From: an uncultured Candidatus Saccharibacteria bacterium
Lineage (GTDB): Bacteria; Patescibacteriota; Minisyncoccia; Phycocordibacterales; G965230995
Length of the DNA stretch: 64,000 bases
Assembly (NCBI GenBank): GCA_965230995.1
Contig: OZ246398.1
Location: 528,213-592,212, forward strand
Reading direction: 5' to 3'
Shown here: piece after piece, positions 15,889-26,851 of the stretch
Numbering within the stretch: the stretch's first letter is position 1
Layout: the number at the start of each line of letters is the position of its first letter
Made by a program: the position numbers and the translations under genes
Notes under the pieces: generated by a model
The model's input: the letters and a program-made list of their open reading frames with translations, nothing else
The model's database searches: none
Told to the model about the DNA's origin: nothing

Positions 15889-15964
15889 GGGCCCGTAGCT
15901 CATCTGGTAGAGCACTTCACTTGCACTGAAGGGGTGGCAGGTTCGAGTCCTGTCGGGTCCACCA
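15889..15964 (+). tRNA. tRNA-Ala (anticodon TGC), CCA encoded
   Basis: Manual cloverleaf: acceptor GGGCCCG/CGGGTCC with the G3:U70 alanine identity pair, D-arm GCTCATCTGGTAGAGC, anticodon loop CTTGCAC, T-arm GCAGG-TTCGAGT-CCTGT, 3' ACCA. Confidence 0.85.
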
Positions 15965-18214: not shown

Positions 18215-20788
18215 ATGTCTAGTAAAATATTAAAAATAAATAAGGGTTCTGAATGGAGAAAGTGGGATTTACACCTACACTCTTTTTACACATCCATAAA
18301 TAATAAATTTTCGTCTTCTAGTGTTGATGATTATTTAAATAAAATTTCTAATGAAAATATTGAAGTTGTTGGATTAACTAACTATTTTAATTTTAGTGAT
18401 GACGACTGGAAGTTAAAAGAAAAATTGGAATCTAAAAACGTTGTTGTATTTTTGAATCTAGAACTACGATTAACTTACACTAATAAAGAAGATGATTGTT
18501 GTGATATACACATAATATTTTCAAATGATCTGACAAAGGAAAATATTAATACTTTTTTAACAAAATTAAACTGCTCAATATCTGGGTCACAAAAAACCCT
18601 TAGCACAATCACTACACAGGCAGATAAGACAAGTGCTGTAGTTGAGTTTTCTAAGATTATAGAAGTATTGAACGATCCAGCTGTATCTGAGCTAAAAAAT
18701 AAAATTCTTATAGGCATGCTTTCTCGAGGTAAAGGTAATTCGAGAAGCTCAAAAATGTACGCGTCTCTTACTAAAGATTGCAATTTTATAATTCATTCTT
18801 CTGAAAAAGTTAAGAATATTGATGATGATCTAAAATATTGGTCTGGGAATGATATCAAAAAACCCATAAAGAATAAAGCGTTATTTCAAAGTAGCGACGC
18901 ACATAGTATAGACGATATTGGTAAAAAATATTCTTGGGTTAAGGGTAACGCATGTTTTGAGACATTAAGGCAGTCAGTTGTAGACTATGAAAATAGAATT
19001 TTGATACAGGAAAGAAACCCTGCTGATAGTAAAAATGCCTCCCTTGAACTATTTATCGATAAAATAGAATATAAAGAAGGTAAAAAAACACACATTTTAT
19101 ATTTTAATAAAGACATAAATTCAATTATTGGTAAGAGAGGTGCTGGAAAATCTGTTTTGATTAAACACATAGCTTTTAATATCCTTGGGGGATCTTCTGT
19201 TAAAAAAATATCAAAACTTAATGATTTTAAAATATATTGGTGTGATGGTAAGTCTGAAAATAAATTTGTTGAATATATTCCACAAAATTATCTATCGTCA
19301 ATAACTTATGAAGATGGTGACAAATACGATAAACGCGACCAAGAACTTAGAACTCGATTATTTAATAACGAGCTATTTAAAAATGCCGACAAGACAAAAG
19401 TTGAGGCTATTAACTCCATAGAATTGAAAATTTATGAAAAAATAAAAGAATCTATAAGTCTACATAAACAAATAATTGAAACCAGTATCCAACTAAAACC
19501 ATTGGGAATTATTACAGATAAAGAAAAAGCTATAAAAACAAAGCAAGAGGAAATCAATAAAATTGGTAAAGTAAATATTAGTGATACAGATATTGAAAAT
19601 CAAAAAAAATATGTATCGGAAATAGAAATTTTGGAAAGAGAGATTAAACTTTTAACACAAGATGTTCAGATATTAGAAACTATAAAAAAAGATGGTGATT
19701 TAAGTTTTATCACTGTTGACGACGATGTGTTTTTGGGATTATCACAATCGACATTAGGTTTAATTAAAAAACAAATAAAAAAACTTTCTAGTAAAGAAAT
19801 TAAATCTTATTTAGAAAGTTTATTTGAGGAATTTAAAAATACAATTAATGAAAAGGAGAAAATAAGATTAACTACTGAAAATAATCTAAAGCCGATTAAT
19901 AAAAAACTACAGAAAAACAAAACGATAGAAAAAATACTAAAAGAAGTTAATAAACTTGAGAGTGATAGAAAAGAAATTGAAAATCTCAATAGATTTGTTA
20001 AGGATAGTAATAATAAAAAAGAAGTTTTGATCAATGAAATTGTTGATCTGTATTTATCCTTTAAAGACAAAATTGATGGCATTGTAAAATCTCTGAAAGA
20101 TAAATTTAATAGTTTTACTTTTATAACTTTTGATTTTACTGTTAGTTATAATACAGATTTATACAAAAAGGCGTTTTTTGATGTATATATCGACGCTCGA
20201 TCAGGCGAAAGATTTAGAAAGTTTATTGATGAGAAAAGAGATTTTAAAAAAGATGAAATATTAGAAATAGTTAATGATATTGTTTCTTGTTCGGATAAAG
20301 CAAAACTTAAAACTACAGGCGGAGATATGGAAAGTGCTTTAGTCACTCTTTTAAGTTGTAAGTATGATATAGATTTTACTAAATCAGTTAAATATAAGGA
20401 CAATAAAACTCTTGTCGATTTTGAAAATATGACTGGAGGACAAAAAGCAATGGCATTACTTGATTTAATTTTTAATCTTTCAAAGGGTGGTTATCCTATA
20501 ATTATTGATCAACCAGAAAATGATATAGATGTTTCTGGAATTTCAAATGAGTTAAGGAAATTGATAATAGATCAAAAAGAAAAAAGACAGGTGATAATGG
20601 CAACACATAGTCCAAACTTACTTTTACTAACTGATTCTGAAAACGTGGTAGTAGCAGAAAACGAGAGTAATAATATTGAGTATCACAATGGAGGAATTGA
20701 GGATTCTAAAATTCAAAATGAAATTGTAACTATTCTTGAGGGTGGTAAAAATGCACTAATGAAAAGAATGGAGAAATTGAACATCTAG
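18215..20788 (+). CDS. Fusion of an N-terminal PHP-like phosphoesterase domain with a Rad50/SbcC/OLD-type ABC ATPase containing a long coiled-coil insert (857 aa); putative defence nuclease
   Basis: N-terminal WDLHLHSFYT and VVGLTNYFNF (PHP motifs I/II). Walker A GKRGAGKS at ~aa 305, Lys/Glu-rich coiled coil ~aa 420-720, then signature MTGGQKAMALLDL, Walker B PIIIDQPENDID and H-loop MATHSP. Confidence 0.55.
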   Translation: MSSKILKINKGSEWRKWDLHLHSFYTSINNKFSSSSVDDYLNKISNENIEVVGLTNYFNFSDDDWKLKEKLESKNVVVFLNLELRLTYTNKEDDCCDIHIIFSNDLTKENINTFLTKLNCSISGSQKTLSTITTQADKTSAVVEFSKIIEVLNDPAVSELKNKILIGMLSRGKGNSRSSKMYASLTKDCNFIIHSSEKVKNIDDDLKYWSGNDIKKPIKNKALFQSSDAHSIDDIGKKYSWVKGNACFETLRQSVVDYENRILIQERNPADSKNASLELFIDKIEYKEGKKTHILYFNKDINSIIGKRGAGKSVLIKHIAFNILGGSSVKKISKLNDFKIYWCDGKSENKFVEYIPQNYLSSITYEDGDKYDKRDQELRTRLFNNELFKNADKTKVEAINSIELKIYEKIKESISLHKQIIETSIQLKPLGIITDKEKAIKTKQEEINKIGKVNISDTDIENQKKYVSEIEILEREIKLLTQDVQILETIKKDGDLSFITVDDDVFLGLSQSTLGLIKKQIKKLSSKEIKSYLESLFEEFKNTINEKEKIRLTTENNLKPINKKLQKNKTIEKILKEVNKLESDRKEIENLNRFVKDSNNKKEVLINEIVDLYLSFKDKIDGIVKSLKDKFNSFTFITFDFTVSYNTDLYKKAFFDVYIDARSGERFRKFIDEKRDFKKDEILEIVNDIVSCSDKAKLKTTGGDMESALVTLLSCKYDIDFTKSVKYKDNKTLVDFENMTGGQKAMALLDLIFNLSKGGYPIIIDQPENDIDVSGISNELRKLIIDQKEKRQVIMATHSPNLLLLTDSENVVVAENESNNIEYHNGGIEDSKIQNEIVTILEGGKNALMKRMEKLNI

Positions 20789-20914: not shown

Positions 20915-21580
20915 TTAAACCCACTTAACCCCTTTCTTCCCAACGCTCACCAAATAATCATTAGTTTTGCTGAAATGCTTACAGCCGAAAAAGCCACTAT
21001 ATGCAGAAAATGGTGATGGATGTGGAGCCTCTAATATTAAATGTTTTTTGGAATCAATTAGTCCCTTTTTATTTCTCGCATAGTTTCCCCACAAAATGAA
21101 AACAACATTTTCTTTTTTATCTGAAATAGTTTTGATTATGCTATCAGTAAAAATCTCCCAGCCTTTGTTTTGATGTGACCCGGCAATTCCAGCTCGCACT
21201 GTTAGTGTTGCATTTAAAAGCAAAACACCTTGTTTTGACCAGTGTTCTAGATTTCCATTATTAGGAATTTCTCCTCCTATATCATTTACTATTTCCTTGT
21301 AAATATTTTTTAATGATGGGGGAATTGGAATATTTTCAGGTACAGAAAAACACAAACCGTGAGCTTGGTTTGGTCCGTGATATGGGTCTTGTCCTAATAT
21401 AACTACAGAGACGTTATCGAATGGGCAGAATCTGAAAGCATTAAAAACAAATTTTGGTGGCGGATATATTTTTGTCGAAAGATATTCATTTCTGACAAAA
21501 ACCGAAAGTTCCTTCCAATATGGCTTTTGGAATTCGTTTTCTAGCGCGTTTTTCCAGCTTTCTTCGATATCGATTTTCAT
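20915..21580 (-). CDS. ung: Uracil-DNA glycosylase (family 1)
   Basis: GQDPYHGPNQAHGLCFSV and HPSPFSA motifs. Confidence 0.85.
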   Translation of the reverse strand: MKIDIEESWKNALENEFQKPYWKELSVFVRNEYLSTKIYPPPKFVFNAFRFCPFDNVSVVILGQDPYHGPNQAHGLCFSVPENIPIPPSLKNIYKEIVNDIGGEIPNNGNLEHWSKQGVLLLNATLTVRAGIAGSHQNKGWEIFTDSIIKTISDKKENVVFILWGNYARNKKGLIDSKKHLILEAPHPSPFSAYSGFFGCKHFSKTNDYLVSVGKKGVKWV

Positions 21581-21633
21581 AAGATTATTTTATTGTATAG
21601 CAAAAGGAAAATAAAATCTGCTAGAATATATAA

Positions 21634-21966
21634 GTGAACGAAATAACTACAATTGAACAGTGGGATAAATTACTAAAGGATTCCTACAAAAAATCAATAA
21701 TTTTATATAAACACAGCGACAATTGTCATGTTTGTGTAGAAAGTCAGAAAGAACTAGAAAATGGAATCTCGAATGGAAAGATAAAAGAAAAAGTAAACAA
21801 AATTTTAGTACCAAAATATAGAGAAATTGCTGATCAAATATCACAAGATTTATCTTTGGAACACGAATCTCCACAGCTCGTTATTGTAAAAGAAGGGCAG
21901 GTTTTATATTTTGCCAATCATCTTGATATTAATTCTGATGATATTGCTCTTTATATGAATCAATGA
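21634..21966 (+). CDS. YtxJ-like thioredoxin-fold protein (DUF2847 / bacillithiol-system type)
   Basis: LYKHSDNCHVC and EHESPQLVIVKEGQVLYFANH closely mirror B. subtilis YtxJ (FLKHSTTCPIS... KHESPQIFLIKNGEVVWH), recalled from memory. Confidence 0.6.
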   Translation: MNEITTIEQWDKLLKDSYKKSIILYKHSDNCHVCVESQKELENGISNGKIKEKVNKILVPKYREIADQISQDLSLEHESPQLVIVKEGQVLYFANHLDINSDDIALYMNQ

Positions 21967-21984
21967 AATTGATATAATAGTTTT

Positions 21985-22239
21985 ATGGAAAAAACTAGAG
22001 TGCAAGAAATAATTAATAATATTCCTGAAATTTTGAATCCAACATTTCTTTGGATTATATTTGGTTTAGCGGTGGTTATTACAGCAATATTTTCTATTGC
22101 TCTTTTGTATCATTGGAGAGAATATGCTTCTGTTCATCACAAGAAACTTGTTCTTGCAGAAAAAGTCTACTTGATAGTCACTATTGTTTTGCTAATTACA
22201 TCACTCAGTACTCTTATTATTTATGTAAACTCACTATGA
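21985..22239 (+). CDS. Small two-TM membrane protein (84 aa)
   Basis: Two hydrophobic helices; stop overlaps the next gene's start (ATGA), suggesting translational coupling. Confidence 0.35.
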   Translation: MEKTRVQEIINNIPEILNPTFLWIIFGLAVVITAIFSIALLYHWREYASVHHKKLVLAEKVYLIVTIVLLITSLSTLIIYVNSL

Positions 22240-22772
22240 TGTTACCAATTGAACAGGACGAAAAAGTGGTTTATGAACTGAGACGACATTGGTTTGATAT
22301 TGTTTTGGTTGCGATATTCCTGCTTGCCATTTCTATCCTTCCAGCAATTTTTATTATATCTCTCGTAACATCTGGCAGCATCACTCTGCCGGTCAATCTT
22401 GATATTTTGCTGATTTTTCTTTTGTCTATTTGGGTTTTGTTTTTGTGGGTTACTTTTGCAATCAGGTGGACTGATTACTATCTCGATACTTGGATCGTTA
22501 CAAACAAGAGAATAATAGATATAGACCAGCAAGGGCTATTTAGACGCGATATTGCTACAGTTAGAATTGAAAATATCCAAGACGTAAAGGTAAAAGTATT
22601 TGGTATTATTCCGACTCTGATAAAGCTCGGTGATATACACTTGCAGACATCTGGAGAATCAAGAGAATTTGAACTATCTAGAGCTCACAATCCAGAACAA
22701 GCCAAACAAGAAATTCAAAAGTTGATGGACGAAAAAGCAAACGAAGTAAAGACAGTAAAGATGCAATCCTAA
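22236..22772 (+). CDS. Bacterial PH-domain membrane protein (bPH_2, YdbS/YdbT-like)
   Basis: Two TM helices then TDYYLDTWIVTNKRIIDIDQQGLFRRDIATVRIENIQDV. Real start at the Met at 22236; the upstream Cys-rich extension of the tracked ORF looks non-coding. Confidence 0.6.
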   Translation: MMLPIEQDEKVVYELRRHWFDIVLVAIFLLAISILPAIFIISLVTSGSITLPVNLDILLIFLLSIWVLFLWVTFAIRWTDYYLDTWIVTNKRIIDIDQQGLFRRDIATVRIENIQDVKVKVFGIIPTLIKLGDIHLQTSGESREFELSRAHNPEQAKQEIQKLMDEKANEVKTVKMQS

Positions 22773-22815
22773 TTGCTCGTGGTACAATATTTCTATTAGA
22801 AGTAATAAAAAATAA

Positions 22816-23379
22816 ATGATAAAGATAAACGAAACCGTGCCTGATTTTTCGACTAGGGCATATCACAATGGAAAATTTACGGATATAAAGCTTTCAGATT
22901 ACAAAGGCAAATGGGTAGCTGTTGTTTTTTATCCTGCTGATTTTACTTTTGTTTGTCCAACAGAACTTGAAGATTTGCAAAATTATTATGAAGAATTTAA
23001 AAAGGCTGGAGCCGAAATACTTTCAGTTTCAAAAGATACTGAATTTGTTCATAAGGCATGGCACGATAATTCGCCTGCGATAGGAAAAATTACATATCCT
23101 ATGCTTGCAGATCCAACTGGAAAATTATGTAAACTCTTTGGTACGTATATCGAGGATGATGGTCTCTCGCTACGCGGTACATTTTTGATTGATCCAAACG
23201 GAATTTTGAAAACAATAGAAATTCACGATAACAGTATCGGAAGGAACGCAAAAGAATTACTTCGAAAAGTCCAAGCGGCAAAATTTGTATCAGAAAATGA
23301 TGGGCAAGTCTGTCCAGCTAGCTGGGAACCTGGAAAAGACACCCTCACACCAGGTGAAGATTTGGTAGGGAAGATTTAA
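22816..23379 (+). CDS. 2-Cys peroxiredoxin (AhpC/Tsa family)
   Basis: FTFVCPTEL peroxidatic-cysteine motif and resolving Cys in VCPA near the C-terminus. Confidence 0.85.
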   Translation: MIKINETVPDFSTRAYHNGKFTDIKLSDYKGKWVAVVFYPADFTFVCPTELEDLQNYYEEFKKAGAEILSVSKDTEFVHKAWHDNSPAIGKITYPMLADPTGKLCKLFGTYIEDDGLSLRGTFLIDPNGILKTIEIHDNSIGRNAKELLRKVQAAKFVSENDGQVCPASWEPGKDTLTPGEDLVGKI

Positions 23380-23391
23380 AAAATAATAAAA

Positions 23392-23426
23392 CAGCACGGA
23401 TGCCTTCGGCATCCGTGCTGTTTTAT
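23392..23426 (+). terminator. Rho-independent terminator (CAGCACGGATGCC-ttcg-GGCATCCGTGCTG + TTTTAT)
   Basis: 13-bp GC-rich stem with UUCG loop and a T-run. Confidence 0.65.
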
Positions 23427-23555
23427 GTGTGGATAAAAATTTGACAATACCGATAAAAATTGTAGCATTAATCAGATGACCGCCACTGTGTGACGGTCTG
23501 ACACCTTCGGGTGTCGCATTATTTCCAACGGTGTGTTAGTGAAGGAGTTAGTCTT

Positions 23556-23798
23556 ATGGCTGACCAGCACCAGGGCCTGAGGAAGCGTATCAAGGAGATC
23601 CTCAAGGGCCAAAAGGTGGACATCAACACCGTGAACAGGGTGATGAAGCCGTTTGAGAACGGCGACATCAACGGCGGCATTTCGATGGCGAAGCGGTTGC
23701 TTCCTCCCGTTGTCTCGCAGGCGATCGAGAGGGCGGTCTCTGACCGGTTCAATCGCCGGGAAGTCACTACCAAGTTCCGGCTCGCGGACGCCTCGTAG
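23556..23798 (+). CDS. Hypothetical 80-aa protein encoded in a GC-rich insert (foreign codon usage)
   Basis: Strong SD GAAGGAG (23541-23547) 8 nt before ATG; MADQHQGLRKRIKEILKGQKVDINTVNRVMKPFENGDINGG...; G/C-ending codons throughout, unlike all neighbouring genes. Confidence 0.4.
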   Translation: MADQHQGLRKRIKEILKGQKVDINTVNRVMKPFENGDINGGISMAKRLLPPVVSQAIERAVSDRFNRREVTTKFRLADAS

Positions 23799-23959
23799 TC
23801 GGCAAGTTTCCAGCGGGTTCCCACCTTCTAGCCAAGGGTGGGGCCCGCAGCTAGTCCGTAGTTCTTTTTTGTTCATTTGTAATGTTGAGGGCGGTACTAT
23901 GGTTTCCATAGGCCGCTTTGTTTGTTTATAAAATCAACATGTTAAGATATAATCACAAT

Positions 23960-25369
23960 ATGAACAACATTTTACCGACGACTTTTATAATAATGGGTGT
24001 TACTGGAGATTTGGCAAAAAACAAACTACTCCCTGCTCTCGCTGACTTGTCGGTAAAGAATCTATTACCAAAAGATTTTAGAATCGTTGGCTTTTCCAGA
24101 AGAGAAATGTCCCCTGATGAATATAGTAATTTTGTAAAAGAGTCTCTTGATAAAAAACAGAAATATTCAGACAAACAGATTTCTGATTTTATCGAACGCA
24201 CAGAATATGTTCGTGGGGATTTCAGTAGTCTAGAAAGTTTTAAAAATCTAAAGGCAAGAGTGACAGAAATAGATAATGAAAGAGGTGTTTGCGGTAATAA
24301 AATGATATATCTTTCTGTACCGCCTTCACTTTACGAAACCTTGTTTGAAAATATTTCAAAATCAGGATTATCAAAACCTTGTGGTGGCGAAAATGACTGG
24401 GCGAGAATTCTTGTTGAAAAGCCATTTGGAAACAATACAGAAACTGCAAAAAAATTAGAAGAAAAGCTTTCTGCAAATTTTAAAGAAGAACAGATTTTTA
24501 GAATTGACCATTATCTTGCAAAAGAAGTTTTGCAAAATATTTTGACATTTAGGTTCAGTAACACAATGTTTGAACCTTTGTGGAATAAAAAACACATAAA
24601 ATCAGTCCATATACATTTCTTTGAATCTGGTGATGTATCAAAAAGGGGAACATTTTATGATTCGATCGGGGCTCTTCGTGATGTGGGGCAAAATCATATG
24701 CTTCAAATGCTTGCGCTCATAGCAATGGAAAAACCAAAAAATTTCATCTGCGCTGATATACGAAAAGAAAGGGCTAAAGCTCTTTCAAAATTAAAGATAA
24801 ATGGTAGTGAATTTCTTCGGGGGAGATATGTTGGTTATACAAGCGAAGATGGAGTGTCACCAGAATCACAAACAGAAACATTTTTCAGTCTTAAAACCTA
24901 TGTAGATAATTCTAGATGGAAAAATGTGCCGTTTTTCCTTGTGAGCGGAAAAGCGTTAAAAGAATCTAGAGTTGAGATAAAAATACGTTTTATCGATCCA
25001 GATCCTTCTTCTGTTCTTCCGATTGAATATCCAGACCAGGAACAAAATACTCTAACTTTTAGAATACAGCCTCACGAAGGAATCGGTCTTTTGTTTTGGT
25101 TTAGGGTGCCTGGCTTTGGTTCAAAAATCGAACCTCAAACATTAAAATTCAATTATGCAGATAGTGAGAGCTCGCGAGTGATCCCAGATGCTTATGAAAA
25201 GGTTCTCTATGACTGTATATCCGGAGACCAGACTCTTTTTGCAAGCAGTAAAGAGGTGGAGTTTTCATGGAAATATATTACAAAAATTATGGATCTATGG
25301 AAAAACTCTCCAATGATAGAATATGAAAAGGGAAGCGACCCGTTTTCTATCGGCAAGCAAAAAAAATAG
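23960..25369 (+). CDS. zwf: Glucose-6-phosphate 1-dehydrogenase
   Basis: NADP-binding IMGVTGDLAKNKLLPAL and active-site RIDHYLAKE; start at MNNILP (23960). Confidence 0.85.
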   Translation: MNNILPTTFIIMGVTGDLAKNKLLPALADLSVKNLLPKDFRIVGFSRREMSPDEYSNFVKESLDKKQKYSDKQISDFIERTEYVRGDFSSLESFKNLKARVTEIDNERGVCGNKMIYLSVPPSLYETLFENISKSGLSKPCGGENDWARILVEKPFGNNTETAKKLEEKLSANFKEEQIFRIDHYLAKEVLQNILTFRFSNTMFEPLWNKKHIKSVHIHFFESGDVSKRGTFYDSIGALRDVGQNHMLQMLALIAMEKPKNFICADIRKERAKALSKLKINGSEFLRGRYVGYTSEDGVSPESQTETFFSLKTYVDNSRWKNVPFFLVSGKALKESRVEIKIRFIDPDPSSVLPIEYPDQEQNTLTFRIQPHEGIGLLFWFRVPGFGSKIEPQTLKFNYADSESSRVIPDAYEKVLYDCISGDQTLFASSKEVEFSWKYITKIMDLWKNSPMIEYEKGSDPFSIGKQKK

Positions 25370-25411
25370 GATATGCTATAATACTGCCGTTATACATAAA
25401 AGAAAAAAACA

Positions 25412-25642
25412 ATGTCACTCAAAACTTTTTTGATGAAGAAGATGATAAAGAGCAAGATGAAAGGAGTTCCAGATGAACAGATAGACAAAATCCTAGAGGT
25501 TATCGACAAAAATCCTGATTTTTTCAAAAAAATTGCAAGCGAAATTGAACACGAAACTAAAAACGGTAAAAATCAGCAAGCCGCAACAATGGAAGTAATG
25601 CGAAAATACCAGGGAGAAATCCAAAAAATGATGCAAGGATAA
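25412..25642 (+). CDS. Small hypothetical protein (76 aa, Lys-rich)
   Basis: ORF only, followed by a terminator hairpin; no motif. Confidence 0.3.
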   Translation: MSLKTFLMKKMIKSKMKGVPDEQIDKILEVIDKNPDFFKKIASEIEHETKNGKNQQAATMEVMRKYQGEIQKMMQG

Positions 25643-25649
25643 AGAAAAC

Positions 25650-25674
25650 AAAAACGCCCAAGGGCGTTTTTGTT
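25650..25674 (+). terminator. Rho-independent terminator (AAAACGCCC-aag-GGCGTTTTTG)
   Basis: Stem-loop plus T-run read directly. Confidence 0.5.
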
Positions 25675-25690
25675 ATGATATAATCCGCAT

Positions 25691-26851
25691 ATGAAAAGAT
25701 CGGTATATCTGGATAATTCGGCAACAACACCCGTTTCAAAGGATGTATTTAATGCTATGAAGCCGTATTTTGTAGAATCATTTGGTAACCCTTCGGCAAT
25801 GTATGAAATAGGAAGAAAAAACAAAGATGCGATCGAGAATTCTAGAAATAAAATAGCTAATCTCATTAATGCGAACAAATCAGAGATTATATTTACAAGT
25901 GGCGGAACAGAATCAGATAACCTTGCTATTTTAGGAATTGCTAGAGCAAACAGAGATATTGGCAACCATATAATCGTCTCGAGTATAGAGCACAAAGCCA
26001 TAATCGACCCTTGCAAAAAATTATCCAAAGAAGGTTTTGAGATTACATATCTAAAAGTCGACTCAAATGGAAATATCTCACTTGAAGACCTAGAAAAAAA
26101 TATTAGGCATGACACGATTTTGGTTTCTATTATGTCTGCCAATAATGAAATAGGTACAATTGCACAGATAGAAAGAATTTCTCAAATTATTAAAAACAAA
26201 AATAAAAAAACTATATTTCATACTGATGCGTGCCAATATGCACCCTGGTATAAAATAGATGTTCTGAAAATGGGTGTAGATAGTCTAACCGCAAGTTCAT
26301 CTAAAATATACGGACCAAAAGGTGTTGGCTTTTTGTATTTAAAAACAGGCATTAAAATTGAACCAATAATTTTTGGTGGTGGTCAGGAGAGGAACATAAG
26401 ATCAGGAACAGAAAACGTCGCAGGTATTGTCGGTATGACAAAGGCTCTAGAGCTAATTTCAAAAAAACATAAAGATATTAAAAAAGTTTCTAAACTGCGA
26501 GATTATTTATTTAGTGAAATTACAAAAAATATTCAAGGTGTACATTTAAACGGCAGTCTGGAAAATAGGCTTCCAAATAACCTAAATGTTTCGTTTGAAG
26601 GTGTCGAGGGGGAATCTTTGGTGTTAATGCTAGATAATAGCGGAATATTTGTTTCTACAGGGTCTGCTTGTTCTTCTTCTGATCTAAATCCATCCCATGT
26701 CTTGCTTGCAATTGGTACGCCAATTGAATTAGCACATTGTAGTATAAGATTTTCGCTTGGATATGATACAAAAAAATCTGATATTGATTATGCTGTTTCT
26801 TGTCTAACAAAATCAGTTGAAAAGATTAGAAAAATGTCTTCTCTAAAATAG
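25691..26851 (+). CDS. Cysteine desulfurase (IscS/NifS class V aminotransferase)
   Basis: PLP-lysine region SSSKIYGPKGVGFLYLK and active-site loop STGSACSS. Confidence 0.8.
   Translation: MKRSVYLDNSATTPVSKDVFNAMKPYFVESFGNPSAMYEIGRKNKDAIENSRNKIANLINANKSEIIFTSGGTESDNLAILGIARANRDIGNHIIVSSIEHKAIIDPCKKLSKEGFEITYLKVDSNGNISLEDLEKNIRHDTILVSIMSANNEIGTIAQIERISQIIKNKNKKTIFHTDACQYAPWYKIDVLKMGVDSLTASSSKIYGPKGVGFLYLKTGIKIEPIIFGGGQERNIRSGTENVAGIVGMTKALELISKKHKDIKKVSKLRDYLFSEITKNIQGVHLNGSLENRLPNNLNVSFEGVEGESLVLMLDNSGIFVSTGSACSSSDLNPSHVLLAIGTPIELAHCSIRFSLGYDTKKSDIDYAVSCLTKSVEKIRKMSSLK

Follow-up and report, generated by a model that had tools for sequence, protein, structure and literature searches.

A GC-rich small-protein gene with its own transcription and translation signals, located between prx and zwf in an AT-rich Candidatus Saccharibacteria genome

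The stretch analysed here, referred to as the window, comprises 64,000 nucleotides (64 kb) of the 742,714-bp contig OZ246398.1 from an uncultured Candidatus Saccharibacteria bacterium (assembly GCA_965230995.1), and all coordinates given without a contig name are positions within it. Between the genes for a 2-Cys peroxiredoxin (prx) and glucose-6-phosphate dehydrogenase (zwf), the window contains a GC-rich island with an open reading frame (ORF) of 80 codons on the + strand, and its sequence signatures indicate that this ORF is a genuine protein-coding gene. On balance, the island is probably a resident, independently transcribed small-protein gene, in which a GC-rich coding body, hairpins and a Shine-Dalgarno (SD) sequence are maintained for a stable, SD-dependent message. 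The comparative base for this reading consists of three distinct alleles, namely those of the window and of the loci L001 and L085, from three or four short contigs.

The coordinates and the translation of the ORF starting at 23556 were reproduced as given in the first-pass annotation, which had been made from the sequence without database searches. The GC content at the three codon positions is 0.56, 0.37 and 0.85 (45, 30 and 69 of 81; chi-square P = 2.5e-9), with a higher value at the first than at the second position, as in real genes. The codons preferred in the ORF (GGC, ATC, AAG, GAC and CTG) are typical of a high-GC genome. A comparison with the neighbouring genes, in which the GC content at third codon positions (GC3) is 0.24-0.27 versus 0.85 in the ORF, bears out the foreign, G/C-ending codon usage described in the first-pass annotation. 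The length of the ORF carries no evidential weight, because an open frame of 80 codons has a probability of ~0.05 per frame at the composition of the island, and antisense ORFs of 145 and 101 amino acids (AA) are also present there.

The orthologue in L001, P0001, shares 77% AA identity with the window protein. Between these two genes, the ratio of nonsynonymous to synonymous differences (pN/pS) is 0.31 in the + frame (P = 1.5e-4) and 0.86-1.11 in four other frames. A value of 0.44 was obtained for the antisense frame that shares third positions with the ORF, as would be expected from a mirror effect of this sharing. In L085, the same slot between prx and zwf holds an allele of 114 AA with 36% protein identity, which is also found on L086, an identical contig with another accession. 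The net length difference of 108 nt in this allele leaves the reading frame intact. The SD, the ATG, the N-terminal motif MA..GL.KRI.EIL and the C-terminal KFRL are conserved across all three alleles. The periodicity, the frame-specific pN/pS, the kept signals and the kept frame together decide for a coding gene and not for an RNA gene, and the small ORF is probably translated in vivo.

The gene forms a monocistronic unit at ~23441-23927 that comprises a promoter, two 5' hairpins, an SD, the ORF, a 3' hairpin and a terminator. The unit, its boundaries and an overlapping gene call are as follows:

23384..23428, + strand: intrinsic terminator of prx, left boundary outside the unit (19-bp stem followed by a T-run)
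23441..23468, + strand: sigma-70-type promoter, TTGACA (23441), 16-nt spacer, TAGCAT (23463-23468) (promoter scan, 10/12 matches)
23478..23498, + strand: predicted 5' hairpin 1, GACCG...CGGTC (minimum free energy (MFE) fold; absent from the first-pass annotation)
23500..23515, + strand: 5' hairpin 2, GACACC-UUCG-GGUGUC (read directly in the sequence)
23541..23547, + strand: SD, GAAGGAG, 8 nt ahead of ATG 23556 (read directly in the sequence)
23556..23798, + strand: coding sequence (CDS) of a basic 80-AA protein (codon periodicity, pN/pS, conserved SD and ATG)
23813..23848, + strand: predicted hairpin in the 3' untranslated region (UTR), GCGGG-uu-CCCACC...GGGUGGG-g-CCCGC (MFE fold)
23891..23927, + strand: intrinsic terminator, stem 23891-23916, then TTTGTTTGTTT (read in the sequence)
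23925..23962, + strand: right boundary, zwf promoter TTTATA-17-TATAAT (-10 at 23948-23953) and leaderless ATG 23960 (promoter scan)
23472..23909, - strand: antisense ORF of 145 AA, P0002 (NCBI, Logan), judged spurious (gene-caller annotation)

Several of these elements had been recognised before. The SD 8 nt upstream of the ATG and the stem-loop at 23500-23515 are present as described, and the hairpin CCCACC...GGGTGGG, located at 23820-23842, is the core of the longer stem at 23813-23848. Of the host-like -35/-10 pair, the TTGACA at 23441 stands, but the spacer to TAGCAT is 16 nt and not 17 nt. A transcript from this promoter would start at about 23475 and have a length of ~450 nt. The promoter is AT-rich (0.24 GC) like the host and is kept as TTGACA-16-TAGTAT in L001 and L085. 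Both of these loci also retain the order of prx terminator, promoter, hairpins, ORF, hairpin, terminator and zwf. At the position of hairpin 1, they carry a different sequence, TCACC...GGTGA, with one compensatory pair, and hairpin 2 reads GGUACCC-UAAC-GGGUAUC, with one compensatory change from C-G to U-A. The SD is common to all three alleles, as GAGGAG. The stem of the 3' hairpin is retained with one-sided and two-sided changes, and four compensatory base pairs distinguish the terminator of the window from those of L001 and L085. In the terminal hairpins as a whole, compensatory changes amount to 2 of 22 pairs on the 5' side and 7 of 32 pairs on the 3' side, and four of the latter are those in the terminator.

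Downstream of the unit, the zwf start is assigned to the leaderless ATG 23960, based on the alignment with L001 and L085, in which this start is conserved, and on the -10 hexamer that ends 6 nt ahead of it. In the mechanical ORF list, zwf begins at TTG 23918 instead, and its first ATG there is 23939.

The GC island is unique within the window. It has a GC content of 57.9% at 23476-23860, compared to 34.9% for the whole window. Windows of 200 nt over 23500-23899 reach 0.54-0.60 versus ~0.35 elsewhere, and a 300-nt scan peaks at 0.60 at 23551 (window mean 0.349, standard deviation 0.042, z = 5.9). The second-highest 300-nt value in the 64 kb is 0.453, at the tRNA-Ala gene. The scans thus confirm the abrupt switch in composition reported for about 23470-23930, and the earlier count of 50 G/C among the first 90 nt of the ORF is exact. 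High GC is limited to the third codon positions of the CDS and to RNA stems. With 0.38 in the 5' linker and 0.31 in the 3' linker, the unpaired UTR is host-like.

The translation signal of the gene likewise differs from its surroundings. An SD core (GGAG or GAGG at -16..-5 of the first ATG) precedes none of the 41 ORFs of at least 200 AA in the window, and the small ORF is the sole intergenic SD-led start in the 64 kb. Judged from this window, the genome appears essentially SD-free. For 9 of the 41 long ORFs, including zwf and the cysteine desulfurase gene, a TAnAAT hexamer was found 4-10 nt before the ATG, which points to leaderless mRNAs. Examples of starts with this SD-poor or leaderless pattern are 9725, 14892, 23960 (zwf), 25691, 31000, 39810 and 53227.

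The recent acquisition proposed in the first-pass annotation is not supported by the comparison with the relatives, in which the gene occupies the same slot (L001 and L085/L086). For prx, the synonymous divergence (dS) between the window and L001 is ~2.1, and identical codons are found at 91 of 168 sites with the same amino acid, versus 83.8 expected at saturation. The GC3 of the small ORF is 0.85 in the window, 0.80 in L001 and 0.78 in L085, whereas that of prx is 0.24-0.32 (0.27 in L085). With prx as a clock, a rough neutral-decay bound limits the GC3 of the small ORF to at most 0.48, a value exceeded by the observed ones with P < 1e-8. Since the synonymous sites of prx are near saturation while the small ORF has kept a GC3 of 0.80-0.85, a recent origin in this genome is not supported.

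The three alleles further indicate how the locus evolves. L001 and L085, which stem from the same JGI sample, are 96-100% identical in bPH_2, 88-92% in prx, 94-98% in the promoter and 5' hairpins, 0-62% in the ORF and 88-100% in the 3' UTR and zwf start. Moreover, the window is similar to L085 in its SD-proximal leader but to L001 in its ORF. The near-identical UTRs, the highly divergent ORFs and the swapped ancestries point to a recombining hypervariable cassette. In these alignments, the locus behaves as such a cassette, with conserved UTR arms flanking the hypervariable ORF. The mosaic of L001 and L085 suggests that co-occurring strains often undergo homologous recombination; alternatively, the metagenome contigs may be strain chimeras.

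A search extended outwards from the closest prx proteins led to L085 and L086 with the divergent allele and to L087-L097, in which small ORFs are different or missing. Where the prx of a relative is 84-89% identical, the slot 3' of prx holds other small basic ORFs with their own hairpins and terminators and a GC3 that is raised to differing extents:

L087, 1379-1657: slot ORF of 92 AA, GC3 0.61
L094: slot ORF of 74 AA, GC3 0.49
L095, 684-950: slot ORF of 88 AA, GC3 0.36

Homology of these three ORFs to the small protein was not supported by hhalign. Their isoelectric points (pI) are 10.7-11.8, and the regions listed are 1040-1190 and 1379-1657 for L087 and 1218-1352 and 1504-1728 for L094. In L087, a GC-rich stretch of 150 nt without an Rfam match directly follows prx. 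Among 80 loci around the nearest prx relatives in GTDB, the small gene is absent, and none has zwf or bPH_2 beside prx. In the best of these GTDB relatives, the identity of prx does not exceed 75%, and most of them carry the labels Paceibacteria, Nomurabacteria or Saccharibacteria, with some archaeal metagenome-assembled genomes of DPANN. Judged from the closest prx relatives only, the clade that carries the gene probably belongs to the Patescibacteria/candidate phyla radiation. An empty prx-zwf junction was not found among the relatives, so the insertion event is not visible.

The protein of 80 residues is hydrophilic and strongly basic, with a pI of 10.6 and a net charge of +7, and has no signal peptide. 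All alleles are basic (pI 10.2-10.9). A confident AlphaFold2 model built from two sequences only has a predicted local distance difference test score (pLDDT) of 80.8 and a predicted template modelling score (pTM) of 0.68, with four predicted helices at residues 6-18, 23-34, 38-48 and 51-77. The first-pass annotation had not recognised the protein, which is consistent with the searches for families and folds: no family matched at curated thresholds in Pfam, NCBIfam, PHROGs and PADLOC, and no significant structural or sequence match was found in PDB and BFVD. Any similarity to a defence family is limited to sub-threshold PADLOC matches (E 0.01-0.017, ~12 bits), which were obtained for P0001 and the L085 allele, and none for the window protein. 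HMMER matches to P0003, a protein of 2888 AA with 22 repeats, and to P0004 were rejected as repeat-inflated, because their E-values result from adding up numerous weak matches to nearly identical repeats. P0004 has the appearance of a GC-rich repeat that was mistranslated. P0003 consists of ~22 near-identical 88-AA repeats, each with AKQVLPSV...AIE...NEITQEF. A single repeat unit compared with the small protein has an hhalign probability of 13% and a pairwise E-value of 0.002. Its 34% identity to residues 43-77 was judged not significant and is the sole resemblance found. Our best guess is that the protein would bind nucleic acid or the ribosome.

These observations can be combined into a mechanism for the favoured resident gene. 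A host-type promoter would give rise to a ~450-nt transcript whose 5' end is capped by two stable hairpins. A strong SD would then drive translation of the strongly basic 80-residue protein with its four predicted helices, and the GC-rich 3' hairpin and the intrinsic terminator would close the unit. The G/C-ending codons would be a conserved trait of the gene family, held against the AT bias of the genome, presumably by selection on the mRNA. Such a compact, GC-rich and hairpin-capped message may resist AU-directed RNases and thus be long-lived, and it would depend on its SD in a genome of SD-less and often leaderless starts. The protein may act by binding nucleic acid or the ribosome. The UTRs, conserved within the host lineage, would serve as recombination arms around the hypervariable ORF and make it an exchangeable cassette, while the gene itself would have been resident for a long time within a small clade.

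Several points weigh against this reading. With three alleles only, the comparative statistics are of low power. The protein has neither a fold match nor a functional homologue, and binding of nucleic acid is suggested by its charge alone. Compared with permutations of synonymous codons, the fold of the CDS has z-scores of -0.4 in the window, -1.8 in L001 and -2.3 in L085. Since the CDS thus folds no better than its permutations in the window and only slightly better in L001 and L085, any selection at the RNA level would act on composition and stability and not on one specific fold. A specific RNA fold within the CDS was accordingly not retained, as the permutation test is unsupportive in the window and weakly supportive in L001 and L085. 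In addition, an AT-rich host should decode G-ending codons poorly, which is compatible with low or regulated expression no less than with a stable mRNA. The dating of the gene is also affected. Synonymous identity is higher in the small ORF than in prx (42 of 59 sites versus 31.5 expected), and this lower saturation means that the A allele may have moved between lineages after their split. Under a clock that allows for such a later exchange, the bound on GC3 rises to 0.72, and the excess is left with P = 0.003 in the window and P = 0.075 in L001. Finally, prx may itself be recombinant and therefore an imperfect clock, because its identity between L001 and L085 is 88-92%, compared to 96-100% for the flanks.

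A bolder version of the resident gene, which we regard as possible but doubtful, is that of a composition-locked, 'armoured' message. Here, the GC3 of ~0.8 versus 0.25 in the host, the hairpins and the unique SD would all be selected traits, and the hypervariable basic protein would be a trans-specific polymorphism swapped at the UTR arms. If true, this would be the first example of such a message in an AT-rich, largely SD-less and leaderless genome. The mRNA would then be long-lived or translated only under certain conditions, and it might also have a function as an RNA. Nothing specific emerged from literature searches for genes with a similarly locked GC3 in the candidate phyla radiation or in AT-rich genomes.

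The alternative that survives best, although we consider it somewhat less probable still, is an import from a high-GC, SD-using donor, with the GC3 and the SD as relics and the alleles re-imported or recently exchanged via the conserved flanks. Codon usage typical of a high-GC genome with a GC3 of 0.85, and an SD-led start that is unique in an SD-less genome, are what such an import would leave behind. The confinement of the gene to a narrow clade, with its absence from the 80 loci around the nearest prx relatives, the clearly recombinogenic locus, the lower synonymous saturation of the small ORF than of prx and the unrelated small basic ORFs in the same slot of other relatives also fit this explanation. 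However, the high-GC donor suggested in the first-pass annotation was not found. Homologues were searched for in 5.8 billion protein clusters, with a HMMER pass over 1.84 billion representatives (~15 billion proteins in total), as well as in GTDB genomes, JGI metagenomes, IMG/VR, phages and plasmids. P0001 was the sole relative recovered from the protein clusters and representatives. Searches of GTDB genomes and JGI metagenomes with protein patterns gave no further orthologues, a degenerate DNA pattern for KPFENGDIN retrieved only the contig of L001 itself from the metagenomes, and the IMG/VR, phage and plasmid collections contained no homologues.

Further points against an import are that diverged relatives carry the gene at this very site, with UTRs specific to each lineage, that the promoter and unpaired UTR are host-like, with GC-richness limited to third positions and stems, and that two deeply diverged alleles both have a GC3 of ~0.8. 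The immediate surroundings also lack traces of mobility. There is no second copy of the island in the 64-kb window (blastn, tblastn), no mobility gene adjoins it, and the sole tRNA of the window, at 15889, lies elsewhere. For the description as a moron, the own promoter and terminator and the deviating composition hold, but phage context and phage or IMG/VR homologues are lacking. An origin from a diversity-generating retroelement or another repeat was dropped as well, since the island is single-copy within the window; no template-repeat copy was found in the 64 kb, where no search was aimed specifically at reverse transcriptases.

GC-biased gene conversion at a recombination hot spot, without selection on the RNA or the protein level, is an unlikely source of the composition. 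It would explain the mosaic identity of L001 and L085 and the swapped ancestries of leader and ORF among the three alleles, the strongest GC enrichment at the least constrained coding sites and the CDS without a strong specific fold. Nevertheless, biased conversion should also raise the unpaired UTR of the same recombining unit, which is AT-rich (0.31-0.38), and prx also looks recombinant, yet its GC3 is low (0.26-0.27). To our knowledge, a GC3 shift from 0.25 to 0.85 is far above the reported effects of GC-biased gene conversion in bacteria, which counts against this alternative.

Slightly less probable again is a structured non-coding or dual-function RNA in which the ORF is incidental or secondary. 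The GC content resembles that of structured RNAs, and the 471-nt region folds more stably than dinucleotide shuffles (MFE z = -3.9 on the + strand and -4.1 on the - strand). In addition, hairpins with compensatory changes are kept at both ends, and the window and L001 do not differ in the 24 nt that surround the start codon, synonymous sites included. The first-pass annotation had pointed out that a covariance model might identify a known structured RNA here, and no such match was found in the island. With Rfam 15 at E <= 1 over 22800-24600, no family was detected in the island, and the weak matches of the region fall only on the prx terminator hairpin. At the gathering score, tRNA-Ala was the only hit in the whole window, ARAGORN found no tmRNA, and the island contains no tRNA. 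The islands of the related loci L001, L085, L087, L088, L091, L094 and L095 did not match any Rfam family either; two sub-gathering matches with E <= 0.01, in L091 and L094, lie outside the islands.

The same evidence that supports coding speaks against an RNA gene, namely the three-base periodicity, the frame-specific pN/pS and the frame-preserving indels. A transcript body that is 0-62% identical between L001 and L085 is an ill fit to a conserved fold, the CDS of the window folds no better than its synonymous permutations, and RNA conservation beyond the terminal hairpins is no greater than coding constraint accounts for. Many GC-rich intergenic regions of an AT-rich genome have moreover been found to be missed protein-coding regions (Stav et al. 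2019, PMC6429828). A type I toxin-antitoxin system is not indicated, as the product is hydrophilic and basic instead of a hydrophobic toxin and no promoter-like site is present on the minus strand of the island. The lone minus-strand promoter-like site within 23200-24200 is at 24017-23990, inside zwf and outside the island.

An assembly chimera, or the antisense ORF of 145 AA as the true gene, is highly improbable: although the composition switches abruptly and gene callers took the antisense ORF and not the + strand ORF in the window genome as well as in L085 and L086 (calls of 131 and 159 AA), an independent Logan assembly of SRR14271374 matches the window with 100% identity from 22472 to 24909, a range that includes both junctions, and diverged syntenic copies exist in other samples, with L001 (JGI sample 3300014205) carrying prx, its terminator, the promoter, two hairpins, SD, ORF, hairpin, terminator, zwf promoter and zwf. 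The chimera considered in the first-pass annotation is thereby rejected. As a gene, the antisense ORF was ruled out by a pN/pS of 1.07 in its frame, by the interruption of this frame in L001 (longest open stretches of 97 and 90 codons) and by its course across the + strand terminator and the 5' hairpins. When used as a query to catch mis-called loci, it found only itself. It is a by-product of GC-richness.

The genes flanking the island encode uracil-DNA glycosylase, BrxC, bPH_2, peroxiredoxin, glucose-6-phosphate dehydrogenase and cysteine desulfurase. The region at 20915-26851 has a redox and repair theme, with uracil-DNA glycosylase, a BrxC-family thioredoxin-like protein, a small membrane protein, bPH_2 and the 2-Cys peroxiredoxin, followed by the small gene, glucose-6-phosphate dehydrogenase, a helical ORF of 76 AA (25412-25642) and cysteine desulfurase. 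Further upstream, the GC content is unusually low (0.23-0.26) at 19200-20400, inside an ORF of 857 AA (18215-20788) whose product has a weak AAA_21 match.

If the GC3 excess is maintained, the gene would be a natural case of strong synonymous-site selection or bias that is confined to one small gene and counters genome-wide mutation pressure. It would then offer a handle on the control of mRNA stability and translation in uncultivated, SD-poor bacteria. The locus also adds a protein family without detectable relatives and with an unmatched predicted fold, placed as a hypervariable cassette between two oxidative-stress and NADPH genes. Gene callers systematically place their annotation on the opposite strand at this locus. 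Protein-level searches therefore miss genes of this kind, and counts of the family may be too low.

Several known systems resemble parts of this locus. Dual-function small RNAs that also serve as mRNAs include RNAIII/hld, SgrS/SgrT and SR1/SR1P. The unit shares with them a short, structured and independently transcribed RNA with a small ORF. In contrast to them, a hypervariable ORF takes up over half of the transcript, no conserved RNA domain was found outside the terminal hairpins, and Rfam was negative for these families. Stem-loops at the 5' end stabilise long-lived bacterial mRNAs such as ompA and ermC. Similarly, two predicted stable hairpins lie less than ~40 nt from the putative 5' end of the transcript, before an accessible SD, and a 3' hairpin and terminator close the other end of the small gene. 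Unlike in these mRNAs, the whole coding body of the putatively stable message is also GC-enriched.

Exchange of allelic cassettes at conserved flanks is the logic of bacteriocin/immunity and antigen-variation loci. Near-identical flanks around a divergent ORF in co-occurring strains, and one allele type that occurs across species, correspond to this logic, whereas the locus has no toxin, immunity, secretion or silent-copy component and its product is soluble and basic.

Morons and other acquired islets are likewise single small ORFs with their own promoter and terminator between housekeeping genes, with foreign codon usage and translation signal, in a slot that varies among relatives. The present gene departs from them in having no prophage or mobile context, no phage homologues and no known donor, and in occupying the same site in diverged relatives without amelioration of its composition. 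Like the missed coding regions found in surveys of GC-rich intergenic regions (PMC6429828), it is a mis-annotated short protein gene and not a non-coding RNA, but its excess of GC falls chiefly on third codon positions (0.85 versus 0.25 in the host) and is kept between alleles. The gene is best classed as a small ORFan of atypical composition, or moron-like islet, with the non-ameliorated GC3, the unique SD and the cassette-like hypervariability as its unusual features.

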